From an uncultured bacterium (lineage in GTDB: Bacteria > Armatimonadota > UBA5829), in contig CAZFYZ010000001.1 of NCBI GenBank assembly GCA_964523735.1, forward strand, positions 10,672 to 74,671: DNA of 64,000 nucleotides, given 5' to 3'. A program made the position numbers and the translations under genes. Under the pieces are notes generated by a model. The model saw only the letters and a list, made by a program, of their open reading frames with translations. It made no database searches and was not told where the DNA came from. Below are positions 3,275-21,181 of the stretch, piece by piece. Numbering within the stretch: the stretch's first letter is position 1; each line of letters starts with the position of its first letter.

Positions 3275-6200
3275 CTACTGGTTGTACACTTCCAGGCTTA
3301 TGCCTGGCAGGCCAGTGTTACCCAGGCTGCCTCCGCCTCCGGCGAATGGCGCGAAGATGAACTCGTTGGCTCCGACAGTGATCGGCGAGTTGAACGCAAA
3401 TATGCATATCGAGGGGCCGCCAGGGCCTCCTGAGCCGTGGCCGCCGTTACCGCCCTTGCCCCCGACTCCGCCGTTGCCACCCGCGCCGATCTCGTCCGTA
3501 TCAAGCGCCGCTCCGTAGCCGCGTGACCCGCCATTGCCGCCAGCGCCGCCGGCGCCTCCGGCCCCGCCTATTCCGCCACTTCCGGAAGTGAGTTGGTTGC
3601 TGTCTACTGTGGCGACCGCATTAGCGATGAAGACAGCGAACGATCCGCCGCCGCCCTGACCGCCGCTGCCTCCCGCGCCCGCAGCGCCTCCGCCACCGCC
3701 ACCGCCTCCGCCGTTGCCGGAGCCGTCGATGACAAAGAAGCCGGACTGTGCGCCACCGCCGCCTCCGCCTCCGCCGCCGCCGCCGTTGCCGCCGGTGGAG
3801 CCATTACCGCTGGTCGGAGGGAGATACATCCCGTCGGCGACGGTGCCGATTGCCGAGGCTTGCGCGCCGTTCACTCCGTCAGCTCCGTCAGCGCCGTTTT
3901 GCCCGTCGCCGCCGCGCTTGCCGGGGTTGCCCCACGCGCCGCCGGATCCGCCATAAGCGCCACCCGCTCCATATCCGCCCGCCTGGCCGTTATGCTCGCC
4001 CGCAACGCCGCCCTGGCCGCCATATCCGCCAAACATGCCGCACGCAGAGTTCCCGTATGCGCCTCCGTAACCGGGCGGTGTGCCATCGCAGTTGCCGTTT
4101 CCCCCGGGACCACCCTGGCCTCCGGCTTGGCCGGCCGGCCCAGCAACGCCATCCGCGCCGACAGCCCCGCTCCCGGCAGCAATAGCATTACAGCTCAAGA
4201 CCACGTTGCCGGTTCCGTTGCTGATGAGCACGCCATAGCTGCTGCCGCCGGCAGTTGTTGCGTTGGCTGAGAATATGCTGAAGCCCTCGATGTGCGTTTC
4301 CTGGGTGATCGCGTTGGCTGAGATAGCCACAGTCCCGCCAATGATGCTGGTTATGTTGCTCAGCGACCGGCCCCAACGTGCTGTCCCGTCGTAGAGGCCG
4401 TAGATGCTCACGCCAGATTGCATTGCCAGTGTGCCGCCGGTTGGCGAGTAGGCTCCGGCCGCGACGTAAACGTCTTTTCTTGGGGAGGCGGCAGCAGCGA
4501 GCTCGATGCCTCTTTCAATTGTGGCCACCGGCCTGTCGAGGGTGCCTGAGTTCGAGTCGCTGCCCCACGGGCTCGGCGCGACGAAGACTGCGCGCGATAT
4601 GTCACCATCGATGCCGTCGCCGTTGGTGTCCTCGAAGAGGCAATCAGGCCTGTCGGGCGTGCCGTCCCCTGTCATTACCGATATGTCCGACGTAGAATTT
4701 GCGAGCACAACGGGTAGTGACTCTGACTCGTGCAGATACATCGAGGATATCCCGGTTGCAGTTACCTGAGTTCCGGCCTTGGGCACCGGCATGGTCGGCA
4801 GCATCACCCTTATGCCTGCTCCTCCCAGCGGATCAGCTGGGAGTCCTTCGGGCTGGGTGACCGGACCATCCCAAATGTCGATGAACTCTCCCTCTGGATC
4901 GACGTAGGAGACATGCCCCACGACCTTCACGAGCAGGCCGATGTTGTTCAATCCCACTCCGCCCTTGATGCCCTTCTGTCCCCTGCCCGAATCGGTATCA
5001 TAGTTGAGGTCAGCTCCGCCAATTGAACGCGGAGCCATCAACAGCGGCCTGACGATCCCCGACCCCATTGGGATGACGGAGGTCGGCTCGATGTATCTCT
5101 CGCCGGCGTCATTGGTGCGCATGGCCCCTCTGATTCTGACGGCGCTGCCCTCAGTGATGGTCTGGAAGGTGCCCTGGACCCTGATCCCGGAAGAGCGATC
5201 GGGCGATCCGATGTAGAAGAAGCCGGGCCAGATCCTGCTGACGATACCGTCGGGTATGTCCACGTCCGATCCGTCGCCCAGCAGCTTTCCGCCGCTGACG
5301 GTTGGGGCGATGACGGTAAGCGCCGCTGTGCTGGACGCGAAGGGTGCTCCGCCTGCCGGAGTCATCAGGACGTCATATCGGCCCGCGTCGTCTATCTGGA
5401 CCTGGCTGATTACCAGCGTGTCGAGCTGTGTTCCCGAGACTCGTCCTGATTCCTGAAGAGGGATTCCGTTCTTGCGCCACTGGATCGCGCAGTCGCCGCT
5501 CAAGCCTATTCGGAAGACGGCTGTCCCGCCTACCGGCGCAGTGAATGGCTGGGGTTGCGCTGTGATCACGACAGCCGGACCCACCTGAATGTACGCAGTC
5601 GCGATGTTGCTGAAGACGGGGTTCTGGGTCTCCCCCTCGTAGTTGCCACGCGCGACATACTGGAACGAGTCCGTGCCTGTGAAGCCTGCGGGAGGCTGGT
5701 AGGAGAAACCTCCCTCACCGTCGGCGCTGAAAATCACAGTTCCGCCTTGAGCCGTTGTCCGCTGCCCGCCCGGCTGGCTCGACTGGTCGAACACGGCCAC
5801 GACCTCGTAACCAACGTGTTCGGGGCTGATAGTGGGCTCCGGGGCATCGTTGGCCAGCACGCCGGCGGACGAGGCGACTGCCAAAGCACCGCCGGCAGCG
5901 ATGTAGTGATCGTCGTTTGCGAGCTGAAGCCGTCCCGGCTGAATGTCTGCCAGAGCAGCCAGAGCATACTTGATATAGGGGTGACTCTCCGTCGACTGCG
6001 TTGAATCGGGCGCAGCAGCCGTGTCGAGGGCAGTCTGCAGTGCACTCGCCCTCTCAGCCATCAGTCCGATCAGATCGGGCGCAGCGTCAGGGATAGCTGT
6101 TGCCGCGTCCTGATAGACTCTGCTGACGCCGTCTTTGCCAAGCCCGATCCCGTCGCCCTTCAGCAGGCCCCGCAGGAGCTGGTTTCTGTCCATGCTCTGG

Positions 6201-8869
6201 GGGAAACCGAGGCTTACGTAGGCCTCGATCAGCGCCTCTGTGCCTGCAAGTTCGCGTCCCAGCGGATAGATCGCGCTCGTGCCTCCCGCGATCTCGCTCA
6301 CGACTCGCGTGTAGTACTCCTGCTGGAGGCTCTTGAACAGCGCCTGCATCTGCTGCTCAACCGCGGCTTTTCTTGCAGCGTCGGGTTCATGCATGCCGCC
6401 GGCCAGGATTGCGTCCAGCGCCCTCTGGCGAAGATTCTGGTTGCTGGTCCAGAAGGAGTAGACATAGTAGAGGTAACTGTCCCAGACATACGGGGCGGGA
6501 TTCGGGTATGCGTAGTCACCTTTGAGGACGATGTAGTCGCTGCCAATAGCGTGAACTCCGCCGTATATCTGGACCTTGCCGTTGGATGGATCTTCGTGCC
6601 ATAGCGTAACCTCTGCGGCGGGAATGGCCATCAGCATATAGGCACCAAAGTTCGGTATGACAAGCTTGTCGTACCAGTAAGGCCGCACTCGTGCGTGCAG
6701 TGTCCCGAGGTTCAGTAGGTGTTGGTTATTGAAGAGCTGGAACTGACTGAACTTGGCCAGATGTGAGGCGGTCAGATCAAACGAGGAGAGAGAGTTGACG
6801 CCGTCCTGCCTATAGGCAGTCATGCTTATGTTGGTCGGCCAGTCGGGAACCACTTGCGACGGACTGCCGTACATATCGAGCGACTCCTTCAGTACACCGT
6901 CCTTCGGAGTGAGCTGTGTCGTCTCCCGAAGCACCGTTGTCTGCAGGTCGTCGATCGCGGTCGCCATCTGCGCGGTCACGTCACCATGGTGCTGCATGAG
7001 CGCGGTCAGCAGAGGCCGGTTGCCGAAGTTCTGCAGCGCCGACTTCACGCGCTGCCCTTCCTGCGTGATCAGCGCTAGTCGGTTCGGGTCCTTGTAGGCG
7101 TAGAACCACGGGTTCTCCCTGGCAAGCTGTGCATACGCGTTTGCGGCGGTAGCCCAAGCAGTCGGGTTCGCGACACGAGTGGAGTACAACGGGTTTGTCG
7201 TCAAGCCCTGGTCGCGGGGGAACAGCCTCAGGTTGTTGACGCTGTAGCCGTAGTTGGCTTGGTTGAGCATGTTCGCGTCGGCTGCGTTAATGAATGTGAG
7301 TTCGCTCGTGCCGGTTGTAGGCCCGGCCAACAAGCTCGAGAGGACCTCGGTTGTGGCGCGAGTGTAGATAGTGGTCTCGGCAGTGACGAATGACACATCA
7401 CCCTCATAGGGCAGGTCCCAGCCGTTGTTGTTCTGCTTGTAGGCTAGCGAGCCGTCAATTGCCTGCACGAAGCTCTGTTGGTAGCCGTCCGCGAGAGCTC
7501 CGAAGAGGTTCTGGTTGAGCCGGTCGAGGTCGGACTGCAGTTCGAGCACCGAGCTTCTGATCGCGGCAAGGCTGACCTGGACATCGCCAAGCTGGTAGAG
7601 AATCTGGTCCAGACCCCTGTCGATCGTGTCGAACCGGCTGTTGAGCTGCTCGTGCATCGCGAGCATCTGCTGGCGCATTTGGACCACCTGATCCAGCAGG
7701 TCCTCGAGCTGCTGCGTGGTCTGATCTGCCCCAAACAGCCCGGCTGATACACCGAAGATGTCGGACAACCCGAGAATGCCATGGCTGATCGTCATGGGAC
7801 TTGGCTGGGCGAAGGCCAACGCTACTCTGCTTATCCCACTAGCGACCTTTGTGACATCAGCGGCATACTTGGAGATCGTCGCGGCCGTGCTCGCCTGCGA
7901 GTCGTCGCCGGCCACGATCATCACCGCAAGCTCCGCGTGGACGCGGCTGCGGATACCGTTCAGGGCCTCGACGTCCTCGGCTCTTTGAGCACGGGCGGCG
8001 TTGAGCAACTCGATGTTGGGGTTGACGAAGGAAGCCAGGTAGTTCGACTTCTGAATAGCGTCCACCTGAACCGCCGTTTGGACCAGCCCCGGCATGGAAT
8101 CAACCACTGCCCCAGCGTGCGTGATCGCGTCCTGGCAAGTGGGCTGAAAACCCTGCGCCCTCAGCGCCTCAAGCGCCGCATAGTCGGCAGGCAGCGCCGC
8201 CATGGCCGCCGCAACATCGGGATAATGCTCGGCCATAGTGGCTGGCAGCGGGAAAGGGTCGAACCCCTGCGAACTGAGGTAGTGTAGGAACGCGACCCGC
8301 ACGATCGCCTTCGATTCCCCATTGGCATCGAGTCCCAGGAAACCGTAAGTCAGCACCACGTTCAGTTCGGCGCTGTTCGCCAGGTCGAACCCCTGCTCGT
8401 TCACGAAACTCATCAACTTCGTGAGCTGAGTAGCGAGTTCATCCTTGTGCAGGCCGAGCATCTGGAGTATCTCGAGGCCGAAATCCGCCCGCATGCCCGG
8501 CTGCTTAGCCGAGCGAACGCCGAACCTCATCTCCGTCAGGAAGTCGATGGGGATCATCAGGTCGGGGTCATTCGGATTCATCGAACGAATGTGCGCGTCG
8601 AACGCGTTGGCGAAGGCGTCCAGCTGCTCGAGTGTGGCGTTGGGGTTCTCGGCCGCAGCCTGCAAAATGGAGGCGAGCACGCCGACAACCCGATGGTTCG
8701 GCGAGCGCGCCAGGTCTGTCATCACTACCTGACTCGCAGAAATCGCCTGCTTAAGCCTGAGGTAATCGGCCTGGCTTTGTACCTGGAGATCAGGCCGGGG
8801 CAGATCGGCCAGGGCCGAAGTGACCAGAATGAGGGCCGGAATGGCCAGAAGTGCAGAGTGCCTAAACAT
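3275..8869 (-). CDS. Giant secreted multidomain protein (~1865 aa): helical N-terminal region, cadherin/VCBS-like domain, Ig-like domain, parallel beta-helix, and a very long Gly-rich (GGxGGxG) low-complexity C-terminal region
   Basis: The ORF track gives 3275..9112. The likely start is the Met at 8869 (MFRHSALLAIPALILVTSALA, a signal peptide) preceded by GGAGG. The cadherin/VCBS-like motif is VLANDAPEP...GGTVIFSADGEGGFSYQPPAGFTGTDSFQYVARG. The Ig-like (I-set-like) segment is ...GRYDVLMTPAGGAPFASSTAALTVI. The beta-helix-like repeats read ...TVAISANAITQETHIEGFSIFSANATTAGGSSYGVLISNGTGNVVLSCNAIAAG. The C-terminal ~600 aa are dominated by G/A/N/Q/S with runs of GGGGGGGGGG. Confidence 0.75.
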   Translation of the reverse strand: MFRHSALLAIPALILVTSALADLPRPDLQVQSQADYLRLKQAISASQVVMTDLARSPNHRVVGVLASILQAAAENPNATLEQLDAFANAFDAHIRSMNPNDPDLMIPIDFLTEMRFGVRSAKQPGMRADFGLEILQMLGLHKDELATQLTKLMSFVNEQGFDLANSAELNVVLTYGFLGLDANGESKAIVRVAFLHYLSSQGFDPFPLPATMAEHYPDVAAAMAALPADYAALEALRAQGFQPTCQDAITHAGAVVDSMPGLVQTAVQVDAIQKSNYLASFVNPNIELLNAARAQRAEDVEALNGIRSRVHAELAVMIVAGDDSQASTAATISKYAADVTKVASGISRVALAFAQPSPMTISHGILGLSDIFGVSAGLFGADQTTQQLEDLLDQVVQMRQQMLAMHEQLNSRFDTIDRGLDQILYQLGDVQVSLAAIRSSVLELQSDLDRLNQNLFGALADGYQQSFVQAIDGSLAYKQNNNGWDLPYEGDVSFVTAETTIYTRATTEVLSSLLAGPTTGTSELTFINAADANMLNQANYGYSVNNLRLFPRDQGLTTNPLYSTRVANPTAWATAANAYAQLARENPWFYAYKDPNRLALITQEGQRVKSALQNFGNRPLLTALMQHHGDVTAQMATAIDDLQTTVLRETTQLTPKDGVLKESLDMYGSPSQVVPDWPTNISMTAYRQDGVNSLSSFDLTASHLAKFSQFQLFNNQHLLNLGTLHARVRPYWYDKLVIPNFGAYMLMAIPAAEVTLWHEDPSNGKVQIYGGVHAIGSDYIVLKGDYAYPNPAPYVWDSYLYYVYSFWTSNQNLRQRALDAILAGGMHEPDAARKAAVEQQMQALFKSLQQEYYTRVVSEIAGGTSAIYPLGRELAGTEALIEAYVSLGFPQSMDRNQLLRGLLKGDGIGLGKDGVSRVYQDAATAIPDAAPDLIGLMAERASALQTALDTAAAPDSTQSTESHPYIKYALAALADIQPGRLQLANDDHYIAAGGALAVASSAGVLANDAPEPTISPEHVGYEVVAVFDQSSQPGGQRTTAQGGTVIFSADGEGGFSYQPPAGFTGTDSFQYVARGNYEGETQNPVFSNIATAYIQVGPAVVITAQPQPFTAPVGGTAVFRIGLSGDCAIQWRKNGIPLQESGRVSGTQLDTLVISQVQIDDAGRYDVLMTPAGGAPFASSTAALTVIAPTVSGGKLLGDGSDVDIPDGIVSRIWPGFFYIGSPDRSSGIRVQGTFQTITEGSAVRIRGAMRTNDAGERYIEPTSVIPMGSGIVRPLLMAPRSIGGADLNYDTDSGRGQKGIKGGVGLNNIGLLVKVVGHVSYVDPEGEFIDIWDGPVTQPEGLPADPLGGAGIRVMLPTMPVPKAGTQVTATGISSMYLHESESLPVVLANSTSDISVMTGDGTPDRPDCLFEDTNGDGIDGDISRAVFVAPSPWGSDSNSGTLDRPVATIERGIELAAAASPRKDVYVAAGAYSPTGGTLAMQSGVSIYGLYDGTARWGRSLSNITSIIGGTVAISANAITQETHIEGFSIFSANATTAGGSSYGVLISNGTGNVVLSCNAIAAGSGAVGADGVAGPAGQAGGQGGPGGNGNCDGTPPGYGGAYGNSACGMFGGYGGQGGVAGEHNGQAGGYGAGGAYGGSGGAWGNPGKRGGDGQNGADGADGVNGAQASAIGTVADGMYLPPTSGNGSTGGNGGGGGGGGGGGAQSGFFVIDGSGNGGGGGGGGGAAGAGGSGGQGGGGSFAVFIANAVATVDSNQLTSGSGGIGGAGGAGGAGGNGGSRGYGAALDTDEIGAGGNGGVGGKGGNGGHGSGGPGGPSICIFAFNSPITVGANEFIFAPFAGGGGSLGNTGLPGISLEVYNQ

Positions 8870-9283
8870 CTCTCTCCTCCGTACGCACGTTTGCGACACG
8901 GAGAGGTGAGATACATCCCCGTGTCTCGCAATCGGAAGCTTTCGTCGCTTATCCTGGCACGTTCTGGAGGGTTCACGCTGAAGCGTGCTGGACTTCGTGC
9001 GGCGAGTATTACGGGGTCTCCAACTTCTGAGGCCAACTGGAGTGTAGCCCAGGAATGCCTGGCTGTCAAGGGGTGGGGAGGAGGCTGAGTACTTGGCGTC
9101 CCAGCATTCCACAAGCCAGAGGTCCCTTGCAGCCAGCGACCACGAATCCGGCAGGCCCCTGCGGGAACTCTGGCTTGTCCAGCACTGCTAGCTTGTTGTC
9201 AGCATCGTTCCCGCAGTATGGCTTGGGACTGCAGATCGCTCATCCGTGTGTTGGCCCTGGGGAACATGCAGGCGAAGAGGCTG

Positions 9284-13200: not shown

Positions 13201-15663
13201 ATGACCTCCCACAAAACCGTAGCCCGCGCGGCGGGGCTGATGATGGTGGCGATACTCGCCAGCAGGCTCCTCGGCCTTATCCGCGATATGCTCATCGCCA
13301 GCCAGTTCGGTTTGACCGGACTGGTAAGCGCCTACACCGTTTCGTTCAACCTGCCCGATTTGCTCTACTTCTTCCTCTCGAGCGGAGCGCTGTCGGGCGC
13401 CTTTATCCCGGTCTTCACCGAGCGATATCAGACCGACCGCAAGCGCGAGGCGTGGGAGATATTCTCGATCATCGCCTGCTTCATGGGCCTGGTGCTGATG
13501 ACTGTGATCGTGATCAGCGAGGTCTTCACAGAGCCGCTCGTGCGCTATCTGGCCGCACCGGGCTATGCCGACCCCAAGTATCAGGAGCTCTTCAGGCTGA
13601 TCGTTCACTTGACACGCATCATCCTGCCCTGCCAGTTGTTCTTCTTCCTGGGCGGGCTGATGATGGGCACACTCGAGTCGAGACAGGACTTCAGGGCTCG
13701 AGCGGCGGGGCCGGTAATCTACAACCTGGGGATTATCTTTGGTGTAGTGATCCTCTCCAGGTGGTTCAGCATTGCGGGGCTTGCGTGGGGAGCGATGATT
13801 GGGGCCTTCGCGGGGAACGTGGGCTACACGTTCTACTGCCTCAAGAAGTCGGGCTTCGAGTTCTACCCGAGCCTCAATCTGAGGCATCCTGGAGTCAAGA
13901 AGGTCGGGATGCTTGCGCTACCAGTTATACTCGGCCTGAGCTTGCCGCAGATCGACGTGATCATCAACCGCTGGTTTGCGACCTATGTCTCAGACATTGC
14001 CCCTGCCGCCCTGAATTATGCGAACCGGCTGATGCAGGTCCCGCTAGGGGTTTTTGCGCAAGCTGCCGGAACGGCCATTCTGCCGACGCTATCAGCCTAT
14101 GCGGCCCGAAACGCCATCGACGACCTCCGCAACAGCGTCAGCTTCGGCCTTCGCGCCATTCTTGCTATCAACATACCCGCATCGGTATTTATGGTGGTGA
14201 TGGCCGATCCGATCGTGCGCACCGTCTACATGAGCGGCGAGTTCAGCCCATCGAAAGTGCCCGCGACCTCCATCGCTCTGATCTGCTACTCGGTCGGCAT
14301 CTTCGCCTGGGCGGGGCAGGCTATAGTCGCGCGGGGCTTCTTTGCCATGCAGGACACGATAACCCCGGTCGTGCTTGGAACGGTCGCCACGATCATCTTC
14401 ATCCCGTTGAACTTCATCCTTGCCCGTGTGATGGGTCATGGGGGGCTGGCGCTGGCGACTTCCATCGCCGCGACCATTCATCTCCTTGCGCTGACAGTCT
14501 TCCTTCGGCGGCGTCTGCAAGGGCTTGAGGGAGGCAAGCTTCTTTCCAGCACCGCAAAGATCTTGATCGCTACAGCTGTGATGGGCGCGCTCTGCATTGG
14601 GGTCAGGGTAGGAATGTCCCGGACTCTCGGTACTTGGCAACTTCAGGAGGGTGATGTTCGCGACCCGACAGAGCTTGCGCTGCAGTTGGGCTGGGATCGC
14701 ACTCCACTGACGCACTACCTGGACTCGCAGATGTCCAAAGAGACAAAGGCGAAGCGTGCGAGTGCATTCAGAGCTGCATACCAGTCGTATCGGATCGAAG
14801 CCGAGGTGGAGGACTTCCTGCAGACGATCGTTTGGAGCCGCGACTTCTACGACGATGAGCGATTTGAGGATGTTTCGATCAGCGGTCGTACGCAGGATCT
14901 GGTTCATCAGCGCCCCACGAGAGGCTCTTCCTTGTGGCGCATGAACCGAGGCCTACTTGAGGCCGCCTACCCTCAAGCATTTGTCAGGATCGCCGACGTT
15001 TCCTCGGTTGCGAAGTGGTTGGAGCCTGCGGATCGGGACCATAGAGGATCAGGCGGTGATCGATGGCTGATTCAAGAAGGCGACATAGTGGATCTGGAGT
15101 CCCTCGCGCACGAGCTTGTGAACAAGGAGAATCCGGTCTCAGTGTATCTGCTTTCGGAGATGCCTCACGGCCTCCGAACTGGCCTGAGGAGCTATGTCGC
15201 CGATGCTGACGCCGCGAGGGGCCTGGACACGTCCCTTATGCATGACCTCAACAGGGTTATCCGCACAAGTCGCTTGTACTCGCCGGAGAGGTTTGGTCAG
15301 CCAACTGAAACAGGCACGACACCTGGCGATGTACGGTTGAGCGAGGAACTCCTGGTTCGAGCCAGAGTAACCCGCGGAGGCCAGGCACTACCGGAGATCA
15401 ACCGCCGTCTTCTCGAAGAAGCGTTCCCCGACCAGATCGCCAAGCGACCGATCGACCGTGTCGAAGGAAGAATGGGCTCTCTGATCACTGTCCTTGTGGC
15501 CATGGCGCTGTCCACGGTCGTCTACCTGCCTCTGCTGAAGCTGACGCGGGTGGAGGAAGTGGACGCGATCTGGGGTGGGCTCCGCCGGAAGCTTTCCAGA
15601 AGGCAGCCGATGCCACCGGACACCATTGATCAGCCCGAGACACGACCGGCCGATGAGTCTTGA
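13201..15663 (+). CDS. murJ: Lipid II flippase MurJ (MviN) with an unusual ~300-aa C-terminal extension
   Basis: The N-terminal ~520 aa form a typical MurJ/MOP fold (MTSHKTVARAAGLMMVAILASRLLGLIRDMLIASQFGLTGLVSAYTVSFNLPDLLYFFLSSGALSGAFIPVF...). The extension contains two related ~130-aa segments (LQEGDVRDPTELALQLGWDRTPLTHYL... and IQEGDIVDLESLAHELVNKENPVSVYL...) and a terminal hydrophobic helix (MGSLITVLVAMALSTVVYLPLL). Confidence 0.8.
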   Translation: MTSHKTVARAAGLMMVAILASRLLGLIRDMLIASQFGLTGLVSAYTVSFNLPDLLYFFLSSGALSGAFIPVFTERYQTDRKREAWEIFSIIACFMGLVLMTVIVISEVFTEPLVRYLAAPGYADPKYQELFRLIVHLTRIILPCQLFFFLGGLMMGTLESRQDFRARAAGPVIYNLGIIFGVVILSRWFSIAGLAWGAMIGAFAGNVGYTFYCLKKSGFEFYPSLNLRHPGVKKVGMLALPVILGLSLPQIDVIINRWFATYVSDIAPAALNYANRLMQVPLGVFAQAAGTAILPTLSAYAARNAIDDLRNSVSFGLRAILAINIPASVFMVVMADPIVRTVYMSGEFSPSKVPATSIALICYSVGIFAWAGQAIVARGFFAMQDTITPVVLGTVATIIFIPLNFILARVMGHGGLALATSIAATIHLLALTVFLRRRLQGLEGGKLLSSTAKILIATAVMGALCIGVRVGMSRTLGTWQLQEGDVRDPTELALQLGWDRTPLTHYLDSQMSKETKAKRASAFRAAYQSYRIEAEVEDFLQTIVWSRDFYDDERFEDVSISGRTQDLVHQRPTRGSSLWRMNRGLLEAAYPQAFVRIADVSSVAKWLEPADRDHRGSGGDRWLIQEGDIVDLESLAHELVNKENPVSVYLLSEMPHGLRTGLRSYVADADAARGLDTSLMHDLNRVIRTSRLYSPERFGQPTETGTTPGDVRLSEELLVRARVTRGGQALPEINRRLLEEAFPDQIAKRPIDRVEGRMGSLITVLVAMALSTVVYLPLLKLTRVEEVDAIWGGLRRKLSRRQPMPPDTIDQPETRPADES

Positions 15664-15727
15664 CGCACCGGCCTCTGCCCGCATATTATGGATGAGTAAG
15701 AGGGGAAAATCACGGAGGTCCCACCAA

Positions 15728-16981
15728 ATGACAAGAACGCAGTTCCGTCTCGCGATCCTGCTTGTGATCGCCCTGTCTGTCCTCGTCGCTCCCGCCTACT
15801 CGCAGACATTCGCTCAATGGATGCAGACGGCCGAGCAGGCCAAGGCTCGCGGGGATATGCCGGGCATGGAAAAGGCCATCCTCAAGGCTCACAGAGTGTC
15901 GCGAGGCAACGAAGGCTCGTGGCGCGGGCTTGCCTGGGCGCAGGCTCGGCAGGGAAAGCATGAGGAGTCACTCAAGAGCGCTCGGGAGAACGTGCGGCGC
16001 AACGGCGAGTGCGGCTGGTCGCTGCAGCAGCTTGCGGATTCGCTGATCTCGACCAATGACTACGCAGAGGCCCGCACCGTCCTGGCGAAAGCCGACGCTC
16101 TGCCTCAGAGCCAGATCGGTGGCGCTCAAGGAGCACTGGATTACACGAAGAACCGGCTCAAGGCATACTCCGGTGAGCGCGTCTATTCGCTGAGATGGAA
16201 GGTCCCCGCGAACGCGTTTGGCGGCAAGACATTCGAGCTGCTTATGCCCGCGATGAACACCCCGCGCCAGACGTGCACCTACACCGTGAGCGGCGCGCAG
16301 TCTTACGAACCCATCAAGGACGGCTACAGAGACCTGGTAAGGATCACTCAGCAGCCGGGTGAGCCCTGCTGGATCAACGCCACGCTCACACTCAAGGGGT
16401 TTGGAATCGGACGGAAGAAGCTTGCCGAGCTGACCTCGCAGGACTACCCCGCCGAGGCAAAGGGCTGCCTGGGCCCGTTCTATCACGGCCCATACTTCGA
16501 CCCCGCCATCCCCGAGTGCCAGGAAGCCGCGCAGAGACTGAAAGGCGCGACGCCTTATGAGACCGTGCAGAACATCCTCAACTGGATGGGCGACAACTTC
16601 ACCTATGATGGCAATGCGCAACCTGACGGCCTCAAGGGATTCCTGATCGGCAAGAAGGGCGTCTGCCACCACTGGTGCAGCGGATTCACAGCACTGTGCC
16701 GCGCGGCTGGCGTGCCTGCAGTCGTTGCGCACGGCGTTGCTCTGCCGGGTGAGAAGCGATTCAAGGAGGCCGAGGGAAGCCACGGTTGGGCCGAGGTCTA
16801 CTTCGTCGGAGCCGGCTGGGTTCCTGTTGATCCGCTTGGGCGTGAGACGCTGGCTATGTTCGGCGGCAAGAGCTACATGACCACCGACTGCGCCAACTTT
16901 ACTGAGAACGACGACCACTTCAAGTACAACTCGATCCAAGGCATACGCTACAGCGGTCGCATCGTAAGCGACACGCCGTAG
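15728..16981 (+). CDS. Secreted transglutaminase-like cysteine protease family protein with N-terminal TPR-like region
   Basis: The ORF track gives 15575..16981. The likely start is the Met at 15728 (MTRTQFRLAILLVIALSVLVAPAYSQ, a signal peptide) preceded by GGAGG. The transglutaminase-core motifs are GVCHHWCSGFTALCRAAGVPAVV and SHGWAEVYFVGAGWVPVDP (Cys-His-Asp triad context). Confidence 0.7.
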   Translation: MTRTQFRLAILLVIALSVLVAPAYSQTFAQWMQTAEQAKARGDMPGMEKAILKAHRVSRGNEGSWRGLAWAQARQGKHEESLKSARENVRRNGECGWSLQQLADSLISTNDYAEARTVLAKADALPQSQIGGAQGALDYTKNRLKAYSGERVYSLRWKVPANAFGGKTFELLMPAMNTPRQTCTYTVSGAQSYEPIKDGYRDLVRITQQPGEPCWINATLTLKGFGIGRKKLAELTSQDYPAEAKGCLGPFYHGPYFDPAIPECQEAAQRLKGATPYETVQNILNWMGDNFTYDGNAQPDGLKGFLIGKKGVCHHWCSGFTALCRAAGVPAVVAHGVALPGEKRFKEAEGSHGWAEVYFVGAGWVPVDPLGRETLAMFGGKSYMTTDCANFTENDDHFKYNSIQGIRYSGRIVSDTP

Positions 16982-17325
16982 TCTTGGAGTGCGATAAATC
17001 GCCACTTTCGTGGGCCGCGCCAGGTTTATGTGTGCGCGGCCCTTGCTCTGCCGGGCGCACGATGGCGGCATCGGTTGTCTGCGCGCTGATCGTGGTTCCC
17101 ACGAATTCTCTCTTTTCACTGCCGGAGAAGCTCTCGATGATTGACTCGGCACAACCGAAGAAGTGGGCATGCCATAGATAAGCCCCGGGTGTACAGCAAT
17201 GCGCCCATTCTGCCCAGTGGCCTGAATGCCGGATATGGGCATGTGCCATCCGTCAGGAACACCCCCCATGTACTGTGGCATGACCAGCCTCTTACGGCAT
17301 GCAAAGATGGGCATGCCATAATAAA

Positions 17326-17344
17326 CCCTATATATAATATAGGG
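17326..17344 (-). terminator. AT-rich perfect hairpin CCCTATAT-ata-ATATAGGG followed (minus strand) by TTTATTAT; candidate intrinsic terminator of the DGQHR-HEPN operon
   Basis: Read directly from the sequence. It lies about 85 nt downstream of the HEPN gene's stop on the minus strand. The local AT-rich island is conspicuous in a ~63% GC context. Confidence 0.5.
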
Positions 17345-17427
17345 TGCCCACTTGACACAGTGTACGTGAGAGTGGGCAGGTGGTTAGGGCGAGAGGGTTG
17401 CTGGAGGGAATCGCAGAGCGAGCGGAG

Positions 17428-17985
17428 TCAGAAGTCGAGGGTTGAATCAAGCTTTCGGCCAGCGGGGGGATAGCCGGCTCTGTACACAGCCCGGTATAGA
17501 GCTGAGATGGCGTCGACCACTGCACCGAGGCATCTCTCGACATCCGCGATTGAGACCGACTGATCTTCCCTCGCATGCGTAAGCGCGTTCCGCAGGTGCA
17601 GTCCTGCTTTGAGGTCAGACCACCAACCTGCGTCCTTGTCTACAGGCTTGCCAGAGTACTTGCGCACCAAGAACTCAAGCCTGTCCTCAAGCCTACGCAT
17701 CTGCAGCTTGTTTGTGAGTACGAACCTCCCCTGCTGCAGTGCGAGCTCCCTCTCAGTCAGCAACGATTGCTCGGTTTTGTCCAGGTGACCATCCGTCACG
17801 AAATCGTCGGCAACTGCGTTAACATGGGCCTCAAGTGCACAGCAGGCCTGCAGCAGGGCGGCGTGAAGGTAGGCAAGGCGACCGTCCGCCGTCGTCTCGG
17901 CCTTGGCCTTCTCAAGGAACCGTTTGGCCTCCTCAAGGAGCAGACGTGCGAAGTCGTCAAGCGTCTTCATCGTAACGGTCGACAT
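17428..17985 (-). CDS. HEPN-motif protein (predicted RNase-type effector), 185 aa
   Basis: The protein is all-alpha by composition. An Rx4-6H motif (LRNALTHARE; R-N-A-L-T-H) lies in the C-terminal third, as in HEPN domains. Its start overlaps the 3' end of the upstream DGQHR gene by 29 nt, so the two are translationally coupled. I assign the HEPN fold from the motif alone, with moderate confidence. Confidence 0.5.
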   Translation of the reverse strand: MSTVTMKTLDDFARLLLEEAKRFLEKAKAETTADGRLAYLHAALLQACCALEAHVNAVADDFVTDGHLDKTEQSLLTERELALQQGRFVLTNKLQMRRLEDRLEFLVRKYSGKPVDKDAGWWSDLKAGLHLRNALTHAREDQSVSIADVERCLGAVVDAISALYRAVYRAGYPPAGRKLDSTLDF

Positions 17986-19240
17986 TCTGGGACTTAAGCA
18001 CCTCCAGGTTCGCCTGCTTTGCGTGGTACTTCTTTATGGCCAGATCTATGAGTCCCTTAGTTATGCCTTCGCCACCTTCGGCCTGCAAGTAGAAGAGTTC
18101 AACGAGACGGCCGCGCTCCTTCGCATCCGTTCTGTACCCAAGCCCTCTGTAGTTGTCCTGATCCGTCTTGTGCCTGCCCTTTGCCAGAGCAGCCGCATTG
18201 AGCGGATCGCGAGGCCCCTTGTTGGCAAGGCCGAAATGCCGCTCCAGGCGTTTGGAATTGGAGTGGAGGACTCCGGCGACATAGGCCCACGCCGAAAGAA
18301 CCGCATAGTTGAGTGCTTTGTGAGCCGAGTCACTGTTGGGCCCCTCTTTCCCTTTTCCGAGGCTGAATGCCGCTCGCTGGACCTGCACAAGCCTAGCGAA
18401 CTCACCCCCGGCCCTCTGTAGACGCGGATCTGTCCACAAGCGAGGCTTGTTGCGCTTGAGTTCCTCCCACTCGACTGCCTCTGTGCCTGAGCTGCAGATT
18501 GATGGAGTGGTTTCTGTGCGATCGAAGTCTCTAGCCGCTATATTGACGCCGCTGTAGTAGTTGAGGATAAATGTACGTGCGGCACGCACGGTGACAGGGT
18601 CTCCGCGCTGGCGCTTATCAGCGAAGTCCTGACCGTGCTGGAGTAGCCCAACCTCCTGGCACCATTGCCGAAGTTCAGGGCCGAAAACTGTCTCCTGCAT
18701 CCTGTCGTAGAGGTCGGGGGAGACCGCTATATTCGTGTTTGATATAAGCTGCACGTCAAGCCTTTGCTCCGTGTCTAGGTCGAAGTACACTTTTATCCCG
18801 TGGAGCTCGTCAACGTGTTCTCTTACCGCAAGCTTGATCGCTTCAAACCTGTGCTGGCCACCGATTACCTTCAGCGGACGCTCGGAGTTGTAGTCAAGTA
18901 CGAATTCACACACGATATTGCTGAACGTTCTCCCCGCCGCTGCATCCTTCTTCATGGCCTTGAATGCAGAATGGTCGAGCAGTATTTCCCGGTTGGCTCT
19001 GTACTCCAGCTGTTCCTCGGGGTCGAGCGGCACGTCGGTCGTGGCGGAGGCGATCAGCTTACTGCCGAAGACGTGGCACTCGACATAAACGGCTTTGGTG
19101 CAGGAGTCAGTCAGTAGATGCAAACGCTCACGCTCTATCGGCTCAAACTGGGCCACGAACTGCTCGATAAGGGGACGCAGTTTGGCAACGCGTTCTTCGG
19201 ACAGAGGCGTAGCAGCAACGAAGTCAGAGAGAGCACCCAT
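17957..19240 (-). CDS. ParB/Srx-fold DGQHR-type domain protein (DndB / DUF262-like), 427 aa
   Basis: The ORF track gives 17957..19273 with a GTG start. The likely start is the ATG at 19240 (MGALSDFVAATPLSEERVAKL...) with AGGAGG 8 nt upstream. The motif KVIGGQHRFEAIKLAV matches the DGQHR (DndB) / DGQQR (DUF262, GmrSD N-domain) signature of the ParB/sulfiredoxin superfamily. The C-terminal ~250 aa are unassigned. Confidence 0.6.
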   Translation of the reverse strand: MGALSDFVAATPLSEERVAKLRPLIEQFVAQFEPIERERLHLLTDSCTKAVYVECHVFGSKLIASATTDVPLDPEEQLEYRANREILLDHSAFKAMKKDAAAGRTFSNIVCEFVLDYNSERPLKVIGGQHRFEAIKLAVREHVDELHGIKVYFDLDTEQRLDVQLISNTNIAVSPDLYDRMQETVFGPELRQWCQEVGLLQHGQDFADKRQRGDPVTVRAARTFILNYYSGVNIAARDFDRTETTPSICSSGTEAVEWEELKRNKPRLWTDPRLQRAGGEFARLVQVQRAAFSLGKGKEGPNSDSAHKALNYAVLSAWAYVAGVLHSNSKRLERHFGLANKGPRDPLNAAALAKGRHKTDQDNYRGLGYRTDAKERGRLVELFYLQAEGGEGITKGLIDLAIKKYHAKQANLEVLKSQNVDRYDEDA

Positions 19241-19457
19241 ACCGAAGACCTCCTGTGAACGACAGCCGGACACTCAGTCCAACAGCAGAGATTATACGCG
19301 ACGCACTTACCACCGGTCAAATCGCTCACCATCATGGCCAGACCGGGCACTCCCTCCGAACCCCCTCCCCTTCATTGTGGCATGGCGCACGGCCGGTCGA
19401 CCGCTGTAGTGACATTCAGAGAAGGGGCGAGGTCTCCGGCTACGATGCCGAAGCAAT

Positions 19458-20651
19458 CTATCCGCGCGTGGCGGCGTATCTCGCACGCGTGCGGCGGCTG
19501 ACCCAGCTTCGGGCTGTGAGCGGGGGTAGGGCGTGGCGGCGGTGGATGGGGTCTGTCTCAAGTTCAGGCTCCACTGGCTGGCCTCTGAATCGACGCGACG
19601 AGTCCTGGTTGGATGCCCGGGCAAACGGGCGCATTACAGTCACGATCAGCAGGTATCCTGCCAGGAGGATCGCAGCGAAGGCGAGGTTTGAGGAGAAGCC
19701 ATCATCAGCGTCAGGCAGCGGAGCCAGATAAGCAGCGACGTACGACGGGCAGAACTTCGTTACCCCAGGAGACAGGAGAGCGCACTGACTGTCATCGGAT
19801 GACACGGCCTGGGATATCGAGAGTATCGCGGCTTCGTAGGCACGGTCCTTCGACGTGTAGGGTACGTTGCAGGGAGTCTCCAGCAGGAATGCGGCGTGAC
19901 CAAGGGTCGTGTACCTGCGGTGGAACAGCCTCGGGTTTCCATCAGGCCTGCACTTGTGCGCCAGAAGCCCCGATCGGCTCTCGACCTTCTTCGCCAGCAG
20001 CATCATCGCATGAGCCCGACTGTCCGAGATGGTTGGCGCGACCTCGATCTCATTGCCCGCGGTGTTGGTGGGGCCGGTCCATTCGTGGGCATCGATCAGC
20101 ACGTGAGGCCTCCATGTCCGAATCGTCCGATCGACGAAGACGGCTTCCGGAGCCTTCAGAGTCGCCCAATCCCGGTTGATATCGATCCCCTGCGCGTTTA
20201 GCCGCTGCTTTTCGGCAAACCCGTCGGGGTTGGCCACCGGTACGACAATGAACACACACTTCTTCAGCAGCTCAGGCTCCGATCCCGACGCGAGCTTTCC
20301 GCACAGCGACAGCACCGACTCAACCGGATTGCCCTCATCTCCGTGCTGCCCGGCCACGATCATAACTCGGGTCTTTCCCTCGGATCCGATCGACAGGTCG
20401 GAGATCACAAACGCTGGTATCGCCCGACCCTCGCCCGATTTGCCAAAGGCGACCAGACGGGCATTTGCAGAGTCGGACAGCGCCCGCACGCGAAGCATGG
20501 CCGCATCGTAGGGGTTAGGGGTTGGGGGGTGGGAGTTGGGGGACGCGTGGCTAGCGGCGCGAGCCAATGCCAGGAGTTGCAGCGAGGATAGAATGAGCAC
20601 GAGGGCCTTCCCTAGCCCCCAAGACCCAGCTCCTAACCCCTTCTGCTTCAT
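19458..20651 (-). CDS. Secreted zinc carboxypeptidase, peptidase M14 family (succinylglutamate desuccinylase/aspartoacylase-like fold)
   Basis: The ORF track gives 19458..20786. The likely start is the ATG at 20651 (MKQKGLGAGSWGLGKALVLILSSLQLLALARAA, a signal peptide), which overlaps the TGA of the upstream flagellar ORF (ATGA). The M14 motifs are VMIVAGQHGDEGNPVE (HxxE zinc ligands) and HVLIDAHEW. Confidence 0.7.
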   Translation of the reverse strand: MKQKGLGAGSWGLGKALVLILSSLQLLALARAASHASPNSHPPTPNPYDAAMLRVRALSDSANARLVAFGKSGEGRAIPAFVISDLSIGSEGKTRVMIVAGQHGDEGNPVESVLSLCGKLASGSEPELLKKCVFIVVPVANPDGFAEKQRLNAQGIDINRDWATLKAPEAVFVDRTIRTWRPHVLIDAHEWTGPTNTAGNEIEVAPTISDSRAHAMMLLAKKVESRSGLLAHKCRPDGNPRLFHRRYTTLGHAAFLLETPCNVPYTSKDRAYEAAILSISQAVSSDDSQCALLSPGVTKFCPSYVAAYLAPLPDADDGFSSNLAFAAILLAGYLLIVTVMRPFARASNQDSSRRFRGQPVEPELETDPIHRRHALPPLTARSWVSRRTRARYAATRG

Positions 20652-21181
20652 CTCTGCCGGTCCAGGAACATAGGGGCGTCGTGGGAGCACGCGGGGCCGT
20701 AGGCAGCGTCGAGCCTGCGTCGCTGGCCTGACTCGCGGATCGCCTTTGAGATCGACTCCAGCCGGGTCTTCATGATACTTTCGCACTGCGCCTGACAGGC
20801 AAGAATCCTGTCACCCAGAGCCTGTGCATCGCCGTCAAGCGCGGCGGCAGACCGGGCGAGTACCCCGGCCTCATCACTCTGGCCGGCAAGGGCGTCGAGT
20901 GTCTCAGTCGGGACTGCGGCGCTGACGGAGGCTAGCTGCCTGCACTCGCTCTCTCTTTCCTCAATGAGGCGGCTCACGTCTGCCGTAGGATCAGCGGCAA
21001 GCGTCGAAAGCAATCGCTCGCTGACGCCTGATATCCTGCCCAGAGCGGCGTTGCGATCTTTCAGCAGCGAGGTGTAAGCCCTGAGGGAATCGACTACCTG
21101 TTGCTTTGGCTCGCCAAATGTGCTCAAGCCGCGGCCTCCATCTGTATCTCCTGCTGGATCATCTGATCTGCCTCCGCCCAC
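20648..21181 (-). CDS. Hypothetical protein in FliT position (putative flagellar export chaperone-like); start uncertain
   Basis: It lies immediately downstream of fliS in the fliD-fliS operon, the position FliT occupies in many bacteria. The predicted protein is helical, acidic and Leu/Ala-rich. The ORF as given overlaps fliS by 57 nt, so the true start is probably internal (possibly GTG or TTG). Confidence 0.4.
   Translation of the reverse strand: MGGGRSDDPAGDTDGGRGLSTFGEPKQQVVDSLRAYTSLLKDRNAALGRISGVSERLLSTLAADPTADVSRLIEERESECRQLASVSAAVPTETLDALAGQSDEAGVLARSAAALDGDAQALGDRILACQAQCESIMKTRLESISKAIRESGQRRRLDAAYGPACSHDAPMFLDRQR

Follow-up and report, generated by a model that had tools for sequence, protein, structure and literature searches.

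In a 64,000-nucleotide stretch of DNA from an uncultured Armatimonadota bacterium (hereafter the window; contig CAZFYZ010000001.1, positions 10,672 to 74,671), we analyzed a minus-strand cassette of two genes: gene 1, encoding a ParB/sulfiredoxin (Srx)-fold protein with a GGQHR loop, and gene 2, directly downstream, encoding a small protein of the HEPN type. An earlier reading of the window's sequence (the original prediction) had put this pair forward as a candidate anti-phage or abortive-infection module. As it had reported, the two minus-strand open reading frames (ORFs) overlap, and both are intact. We assign a probability of roughly 0.6 to the interpretation that the cassette is a mobile, self-contained two-gene conflict module, either toxin-antitoxin (TA)-like or acting in abortive infection or defense, in which a ParB-like controller governs a HEPN RNase. 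The evidence that carries this interpretation is the strict pairing of the two genes, the conserved motifs of both proteins, the exchange of nucleases among relatives of gene 1 and the scattered distribution of the cassette. Unless a different locus is named, positions are those of the window.

Gene 1 and gene 2 form a strict pair

We surveyed one genome per species and recovered 80 gene 1 loci from at least 13 phyla, at 51–64% identity. With peptide patterns, we confirmed 89 gene 1 matches among 185,579 species genomes, likewise spread over at least 13 phyla, and archaeal members of the family also exist. In 74 of the 80 loci, the next gene downstream was a gene 2 homologue in the same orientation. 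Because the six exceptions either end at a contig boundary (L045, L060, L079) or carry a truncated or decayed gene 1 (L071, L073, L080), pairing is complete among the 74 intact copies that have downstream sequence. Stop-to-start distances in these loci were most often -4 (18 loci) or -1 (15 loci), implying that translation of the two genes is coupled.

The pairing extended beyond this set. Most of 80 divergent metagenome loci (35–45% identity) had both genes, the HEPN gene was downstream in all five IMG/VR contigs, and a reciprocal look-up found a gene 1 relative abutting upstream of each of four HEPN homologues on long contigs. Gene 1 preceded gene 2 in every pair found. Pairwise protein distances of the two families were correlated (r = 0.69, Mantel p ≤ 0.001), as is expected of partners that are inherited together.

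Clustering of all flanking ORFs did not reveal a further conserved gene: only 8 loci shared the next real cluster, and the one additional large cluster was rejected as an antisense shadow of gene 1. The non-coding flanks of the cassette were not conserved in other loci, leaving the two coding sequences as the only common part. No dnd or phosphorothioation genes recurred among the two nearest ORFs on each side in the 74 loci, or stood beside the pair in the window, and no methyltransferase or other modification gene was conserved near the pair. The cassette is in this respect what had been proposed, a self-contained operon free of dnd and ssp genes, of a methyltransferase and of a DUF1524 partner.

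Gene 2 belongs to the RiboL-PSP group of HEPN proteins on the basis of motif and family matches

Gene 2 contains the motif LRNALTH, noted in the original prediction as the Rx4H motif of HEPN RNases. Within an alignment of 31 gene 2 family sequences, R127, N128 and H132 were invariant, and RNxxxH or RDxxxH was present in essentially all full-length gene 2 partners (147 loci). The family is sizeable, with 419 relatives of gene 2 found; together with the relatives of gene 1 given below, this number places both ORFs far beyond a chance occurrence. A structure model of the protein has the helical up-and-down bundle fold of HEPN domains. It is mostly helical, as had been anticipated, although not all-helical, as a beta-hairpin is inserted at residues 74–89.

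The window protein matched the Pfam family PF18735 (HEPN_RiboL-PSP) at 16 bits (E 0.011), below the gathering cut-off of 28.4, with the match running near full length (profile positions 14–188 of 191). Its relatives matched more strongly: 20 of the 31 family members matched PF18735 over its whole length (best E 5.9e-8), and a precomputed match is on record for several gene 2 homologues. We therefore count the window protein as a member of PF18735 through its relatives, since its own score would not place it there. Matches to PADLOC models were weak throughout (Cas13-ApeA, E 1e-3; DRT HEPN, E 0.023). The gene 2 family profile, run against all PDB chains, matched only designed helical repeat proteins, which we discarded as compositional noise.

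Its invariant motif and the PF18735 matches of its family place gene 2 in the RiboL-PSP group of HEPN domain proteins. That it is a HEPN protein whose Rx4H motif is intact agrees with the original prediction. It is predicted to be an RNase effector or toxin.

Gene 1 represents an uncatalogued family of the ParB/Srx superfamily

The predicted gene 1 motif, KVIGGQHRFEAIK, was found at residues 124–136, in a protein whose N-terminal half has the ParB/Srx fold. In the structure model, the GGQHR pentapeptide (residues 127–131) sits between a strand (123–127) and a helix (129–140), the position of a G-x-x-R phosphate-binding loop at a strand-to-helix junction. GGQHR was invariant in the family alignments and present in 163 of 165 copies; the sole intact copy without it (L017) has GGQRR. 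Comparable loops are GERRxRA in ParB, GGCHR in Srx and DGQ[HQ]R in DndB and DUF262 proteins. The fold and the GQHR loop are thus as first described. The motif had, however, been read as a DGQHR/DGQQR signature, whereas the pentapeptide is invariably GGQHR, with a first residue, G, like that of the Srx loop. The strict signature, as defined by Machnicka et al. (PMC4619093), also places a QR pair before the near-invariant DGQHR and an FxxxN after it. In gene 1, the conserved upstream pair is N83-R84, not QR, and the conserved downstream block is Q159-R160...L-I-S-N168, not FxxxN. By sequence, then, gene 1 resembles the strict signature (PMC4619093) only partially, with the QR and FxxxN elements loosely matched.

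Profile searches agreed with this separation. No Pfam, NCBIfam or PADLOC model matched gene 1 at threshold, and PHROGs gave no match whatsoever. The DGQHR model TIGR03187 scored 12.1 bits (E 0.12) against a cut-off of 58.85; PF14072 did not match the window protein, and its best match in the family had an E-value of 0.036 (P0255). For DUF262, there was no match at E ≤ 1 to gene 1 or to 17 divergent relatives, so that the likeness lies at the level of the fold only. The proposed membership of gene 1 in the DndB/DGQHR or DUF262 families therefore did not hold up. A DUF1524 or His-Me finger nuclease was absent from the window protein, from the adjacent genes and from all HEPN-paired copies, and a profile scan of the window protein found no HNH domain. 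Gene 1 had no ParB_N or ParBc match of the kind that would mark a partition ParB, and no ParA-like gene was conserved beside the pair.

Searching all PDB chains by sequence with the gene 1 family profile found no solved structure, and Foldseek gave no significant match against the PDB. One divergent relative (P0272) did show a sequence-level ParB-like match over the GGQHR region (phrog_1033, E 2.9e-4). We also considered that the C-terminal half of gene 1 might be a HEPN domain, as reported for DndB, and rejected this when hhalign showed no similarity to gene 2. The gene 1 family is large yet isolated: a word-indexed search returned more than 1,430 relatives, and only 318 representatives, many of them fragments, were found at 50% clustering. 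We conclude that gene 1 defines a family of its own within the ParB/Srx superfamily, one not yet catalogued, and is a member of neither DndB nor DUF262; it is predicted to be a nucleoside triphosphate (NTP)-binding sensor or regulator. Neither the profile and structure searches nor the co-occurrence check overturned the idea of a ParB-like/HEPN module: gene 2 was HEPN-like, gene 1 was not a partition ParB, and 74 of 74 intact copies were paired.

Relatives of gene 1 carry alternative N-terminal domains

The ParB-like protein occurs in three architectures. The core form has ~420 aa and is paired with HEPN. A second form of 470–490 aa, also HEPN-paired, has an N-terminal strand-helix-helix extension, which the window protein lacks. 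The third form, of 510–545 aa, has an N-terminal HNH domain of the zinc-finger type with a complete CxxC...HH...N...CxxCH motif; the Pfam HNH model matched at or just above its gathering score in three proteins, and PHROGs matched at E 5.5e-8. This HNH-fused branch comprises five loci (L154, L166, L167, L168 and L170; proteins P0245, P0262, P0263, P0272 and P0398). In L154, L166, L167 and L168, at least 777 bp downstream of the HNH-fused gene could be searched with the HMMER filters off, and no HEPN gene was found in any of the four.

The substitution of HNH for HEPN in a sister branch suggests that the nuclease effector can be exchanged, as in GmrSD. Because the same protein body is joined to a DNase in one branch and served by a separately encoded RNase in the other, we take the ParB-like protein to be the sensing or regulating part and HEPN to be the effector. 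Many HNH-fused copies sit within housekeeping operons; the one in L166, for instance, is flanked by purine-biosynthesis genes.

The extension of the second form was conserved in L109, L116, L118, L121, L124, L125, L139, L141, L146 and L165, and also in P0250, with the consensus KLKLQF-x-TSDELWDKVLRYK...NNN-x-AVEELIKKAL. Its profile matches were weak (RHH_6, 1.4e-3; RelB-like, 0.032; Mnt, 0.085) and it had no PDB match; it may be an autoregulatory DNA-binding domain. One relative carrying such a ribbon-helix-helix (RHH)-like extension, a 470-aa protein encoded at positions 3914–5326 of L122, has no HEPN gene downstream even though the contig continues. The next gene there (5500–6480) encodes an unrelated 326-aa protein, possibly through replacement or loss of the partner.

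The cassette is horizontally mobile

Gene neighborhoods differed from locus to locus in unrelated ways and mixed housekeeping genes with mobile and defense genes. Among the neighbors were integrases (5), resolvases, transposases, DNA methylases and a PstI-type restriction enzyme, as well as AbiH, Schlafen/AlbA_2 and PIN genes. In the IMG/VR contigs, P2-like prophage genes (terminase, tail sheath, GpU, GpD, Ogr/Delta) lay beside the pair. No copy was detected by tblastn on 72,556 plasmids (PLSDB) or 50,697 phage genomes (INPHARED).

No mobile genes adjoin the cassette in the window. An imperfect 34-nt direct repeat, however, brackets exactly the stretch from promoter to terminator. Its two copies match at 24 of 34 positions (71% identity), a level reached by none of 300 dinucleotide shuffles of the two flanks. 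The exact 9-mer at its core, TGTGGCATG, is found nowhere else in the 64 kb, which ruled out a window-wide repeat family as the source. The repeat is possibly an insertion scar and may be the remnant of a target site or attachment site. The GC content of the cassette, judged by eye in the original prediction to be slightly low, is indeed lower than that of the window (0.568 versus 0.599), about 2 standard deviations low and equaled by only 3% of same-size windows. Occurrence in at least 13 phyla, unrelated neighborhoods, low GC and the flanking repeat together mark the cassette as horizontally mobile across phyla.

At one locus (L175), the 4 kb around the cassette also contain a classical MNT-HepT TA pair (NTP_transf_2 plus HepT-like, positions 365–998 of that locus) and genes for an IS110 transposase and a NACHT NTPase. 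These surroundings are a small conflict-gene island.

Comparison with known systems

The original prediction had called the pairing undescribed, and here the literature corrects it. For RiboL-PSP HEPN proteins, Anantharaman et al. (2013) give the entry 'fused to endoRNase L-PSP; operon with ParB' (PMC3710099, Table 1). That paper gives the operon one table line, which leaves the ParB partner undefined and presents neither an anatomy nor an experiment, and its supplement adds nothing further on the operon; the same work describes HEPN families as RNase toxins of TA, abortive-infection and CRISPR systems (PMC3710099). Makarova et al. (2013) reported frequent fusions of a ParB-like core (COG1479/DUF262/DGQHR) with HNH, PD-(D/E)xK or HEPN domains, and described DndB as ParB plus HEPN (PMC3632139). 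The domain logic of a ParB-like protein with HEPN is therefore already known, and the pairing was predicted computationally in 2013. The gene 1 family, the strict two-gene anatomy, the alternation of HNH and HEPN and any experimental test of such a cassette appear to be undescribed.

The closest precedent for gene 2 is the RiboL-PSP HEPN family (PF18735) itself. Both have a conserved Rx4H motif and a ParB-like gene in the same operon, and two members with recorded PF18735 matches, P0185 (unmarked) and P0128 (weak), have a gene 1 relative directly upstream. Window gene 2 differs in falling below the Pfam cut-off (16 versus 28.4 bits) and in having no L-PSP fusion. HepT-MntA, of the HEPN-MNT type, offers a similar layout, with a small Rx4H HEPN protein encoded by the second of two overlapping genes in a bicistronic unit. 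The partner in our cassette, however, has a ParB/Srx fold in place of an MNT nucleotidyltransferase and is 3–4 times larger than MntA, and gene 2 belongs to the RiboL-PSP family, not to the HepT-like family PF01934.

The type IV restriction enzymes GmrSD, BrxU and SspE (a ParB-like DUF262 NTPase plus a DUF1524 His-Me/HNH nuclease) likewise couple a nucleotide-binding sensor module, predicted for gene 1, to a nuclease, and the fusion of HNH to the sister branch of gene 1 recalls GmrSD in particular (ParB plus HNH). The cassette differs from these systems in having no DUF262 or DUF1524 match, in its GGQHR rather than DGQQR loop, and in its nuclease, an RNase-type HEPN protein encoded by a separate downstream gene. 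The HNH domain of the sister branch is also N-terminal, whereas the nuclease of the GmrSD type is C-terminal. With DndB, gene 1 shares the GQHR loop, the combination of ParB-like and HEPN parts, and weak matches of its family to TIGR03187 and PF14072. Unlike DndB, it scores far below the cut-offs and starts its pentapeptide with G instead of D, no dnd genes recur among the ORFs nearest the pair, and the HEPN part is a separate protein.

The same logic of a ParB-like sensor controlling an RNase effector has been proposed for the anti-phage system Menshen (NsnABC), whose DNA sensor is a ParB-DUF262 protein (PMC12065111). That system needs NsnB, an ABC ATPase, as transducer, whereas the cassette consists of two genes without an ATPase; the Menshen effector has inPIN plus BECR-type domains, whereas that of the cassette is HEPN.

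A model for the cassette and its alternatives

For the conflict module that we favor, we infer NTP binding, RNase activity, complex formation, the roles of the subunits and of the trigger, and a phage-resistance phenotype. In this model, both proteins would be made from one transcript by coupled translation and would probably assemble into a complex that keeps the RNase inactive. The GGQHR loop of gene 1 would bind nucleotide in a pocket, and the large helical C-terminal half of the protein is likely to contact nucleic acid, the HEPN protein, or both. A trigger, for which foreign DNA or an infection-induced shift in nucleotide state is the most plausible candidate, would be sensed by the ParB-like subunit, releasing or activating gene 2, a putative RiboL-PSP-type HEPN endoribonuclease serving as effector or toxin. 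The active RNase would then cut cellular RNA, phage RNA, or both, leading to growth arrest or abortive infection.

Several observations weigh against this interpretation. Our search of the full-text literature found no experimental paper on either family or on a ParB-like/HEPN pairing. PADLOC-DB v2 has no model matching gene 1 and matched gene 2 only weakly (Cas13-ApeA, E 1e-3). The association with defense islands is modest, many neighbors being housekeeping genes, and the window copy itself lies between a peptidase gene and a transglutaminase gene. No fusion of gene 1 to gene 2 was seen among the listed homologues. Finally, because the ParB/Srx fold includes kinases and DNases, the role of gene 1 may be enzymatic and not sensory. 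A more ambitious version of the model goes beyond a passive antitoxin and casts gene 1 as a nucleotide-dependent switch or enzyme that gates the HEPN RNase directly and that forms, together with the HNH branch, a new and widespread anti-phage family with interchangeable RNA- and DNA-targeting nucleases; we consider this version quite doubtful.

A plain TA addiction module, in which the ParB-like protein acts simply as antitoxin to a HEPN toxin and as autorepressor, and the pair stabilizes the mobile DNA that carries it without sensing phage, would account for the antitoxin-like gene coming first and the toxin second with overlapping stop and start codons. The RHH-like N-terminal extension of one sub-branch of gene 1 fits as well, in that its matches, weak as they are, all fall in the RHH class; that assignment is not significant, however. 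The absence of the cassette from PLSDB and INPHARED argues against plasmid addiction. Gene 1 is also far larger, at 427 aa, and far more constrained than a typical antitoxin, as its nucleotide-binding loop is conserved and dozens of its residues are invariant, and the HNH-fused branch, which stands alone without a toxin gene, is a better fit to a nuclease-coupled sensor. We think a plain addiction module unlikely. The HNH-fused branch, by which the ParB-like body common to both branches should act on DNA, suggests instead a DNA-directed, restriction-like system in which the ParB-like protein recognizes and nicks foreign or modified DNA (compare GmrSD, SspE and Osa-type ParB nucleases) and HEPN is an accessory or second-line RNase. 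Nicking and NTPase activity are reported for ParB/Srx proteins (PMC12839542; PMC4619093). Such a system is improbable in our judgment: gene 1 of the window has no DUF262, DUF1524 or HNH match, modification genes including methyltransferases are not conserved nearby, and a HEPN protein with intact motif is kept in every intact non-HNH copy, which singles it out as the principal effector rather than an accessory.

A housekeeping function, be it as a partition ParB, in Srx-like redox repair or as an RNA-processing pair unrelated to conflict, could explain why the window copy sits among ordinary chromosomal genes and why some copies lie within metabolic operons. The pair has, however, no ParA partner and no ParB Pfam domain, and its distribution is sporadic (the 89 matches in 185,579 species genomes, at least 13 phyla, at 51–64% identity). 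Its neighborhoods vary, copies have decayed (L071, L073, L080) and others are prophage cargo. Sporadic spread, variable neighborhoods, decay and carriage by prophages are typical of accessory mobile genes, and we regard a housekeeping role as very improbable.

If the conflict module that we favor is active in defense or abortive infection, it would add a compact two-gene anti-phage family with more than 1,400 gene 1 relatives, present in some archaea as well as in at least 13 phyla of bacteria, one that PADLOC-DB v2 misses and whose gene 1 escapes Pfam and NCBIfam models. It would also provide a simple model for the control of nucleases by ParB/Srx nucleotide switches (compare GmrSD, BrxU, SspE, DndB and Menshen NsnA), since the controller and nuclease are separate small proteins and nature supplies an effector swap, with HEPN in trans and HNH in cis. 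Were the cassette only a TA pair, it would still be the first characterized HEPN toxin with a ParB-fold partner.

Gene boundaries and expression signals

The features of the cassette are collected in Table 1. Its promoter is the sole promoter-like site within 16900–19600 and lies ~50 nt upstream of the gene 1 ATG. Because this promoter and the AGGAGG serve the ATG at 19240, we favor that start over a GTG at 19273. The upstream gap (19241–19457) therefore measures 217 bp, not the 184 bp originally given, a figure that fits the GTG start only. The corresponding NCBI protein (P0001) has the same length as gene 1, 427 aa. For gene 2, homologues have ~180 aa and begin M-x-x-x-D-x-F, so that the likely start is the ATG at 17970; this shortens the overlap with gene 1 from the 29 nt first reported. 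The NCBI gene call for gene 2 uses the 185-aa form. A terminator hairpin downstream of gene 2 had been predicted and is present.

On one flank, the cassette is adjoined by a transglutaminase-like/TPR gene (15575–16981, plus strand). On the other lies an M14 zinc carboxypeptidase gene (19458–20786), followed by FliS and FliD genes. The cassette had been placed between a transglutaminase gene and the flagellar regulon; the former neighbor is correct, whereas the carboxypeptidase gene intervenes before the flagellar genes.

Table 1. Positions of the cassette's genes, expression signals and flanking repeats in the window.
Feature	Position	Strand	Description
Gene 1	17957–19240	-	427-aa ParB/Srx-fold protein; GGQHR loop at residues 127–131; large helical C-terminal half
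Gene 2	17428–17970	-	180-aa protein, RiboL-PSP-type HEPN by motif and family; R127-N128-x3-H132; alternative start 17985 gives 185 aa
Sigma-70-type promoter	19291–19320	-	TTGACC, 18-nt spacer, TATAAT; 11/12 consensus positions
Shine-Dalgarno AGGAGG	19249–19254	-	8 nt before gene 1 ATG; by sequence inspection
Gene 1 stop/gene 2 start overlap	17957–17970	-	14 nt
Terminator-like hairpin	17325–17345	-	ACCCTATATTATATATAGGGT then TTATTAT; 9-bp stem, 3-nt loop
Direct repeat copy 1	17249–17282	unassigned	Imperfect 34-nt repeat, terminator side
Direct repeat copy 2	19351–19384	unassigned	Imperfect 34-nt repeat, promoter side

Other observations in the window

Gene 2 is separated from the transglutaminase-like gene by 446 bp of intergenic sequence (16982–17427, core 17150–17365) that is unusually structured. 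It contains a perfect 9-nt inverted repeat (AAGTGGGCA at 17161–17169 and TGCCCACTT at 17345–17353). The sequence TGGGCATGCCATA occurs twice without mismatch, at 17164 and at 17308, and GGCATG occurs five times against 0.15 expected. The folding z-scores of the region are -2.7 as RNA of the operon strand and -3.3 as DNA. The region had no Rfam match, an Rfam scan of the whole window having returned no family at gathering threshold, and it is not conserved beside the pair in other genomes. It could be a remnant of the miniature inverted-repeat transposable element (MITE) type, a structured 3' untranslated region or a protein-binding site.

Two further genes of the window stood out. The MurJ lipid II flippase gene (13201–15663) encodes an 820-aa protein that matches MurJ at residues 32–476 only and continues in a C-terminal extension of ~340 aa without a Pfam match. 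Upstream of the region analyzed here, a very long ORF on the minus strand (3275–9112) encodes 1,945 aa.

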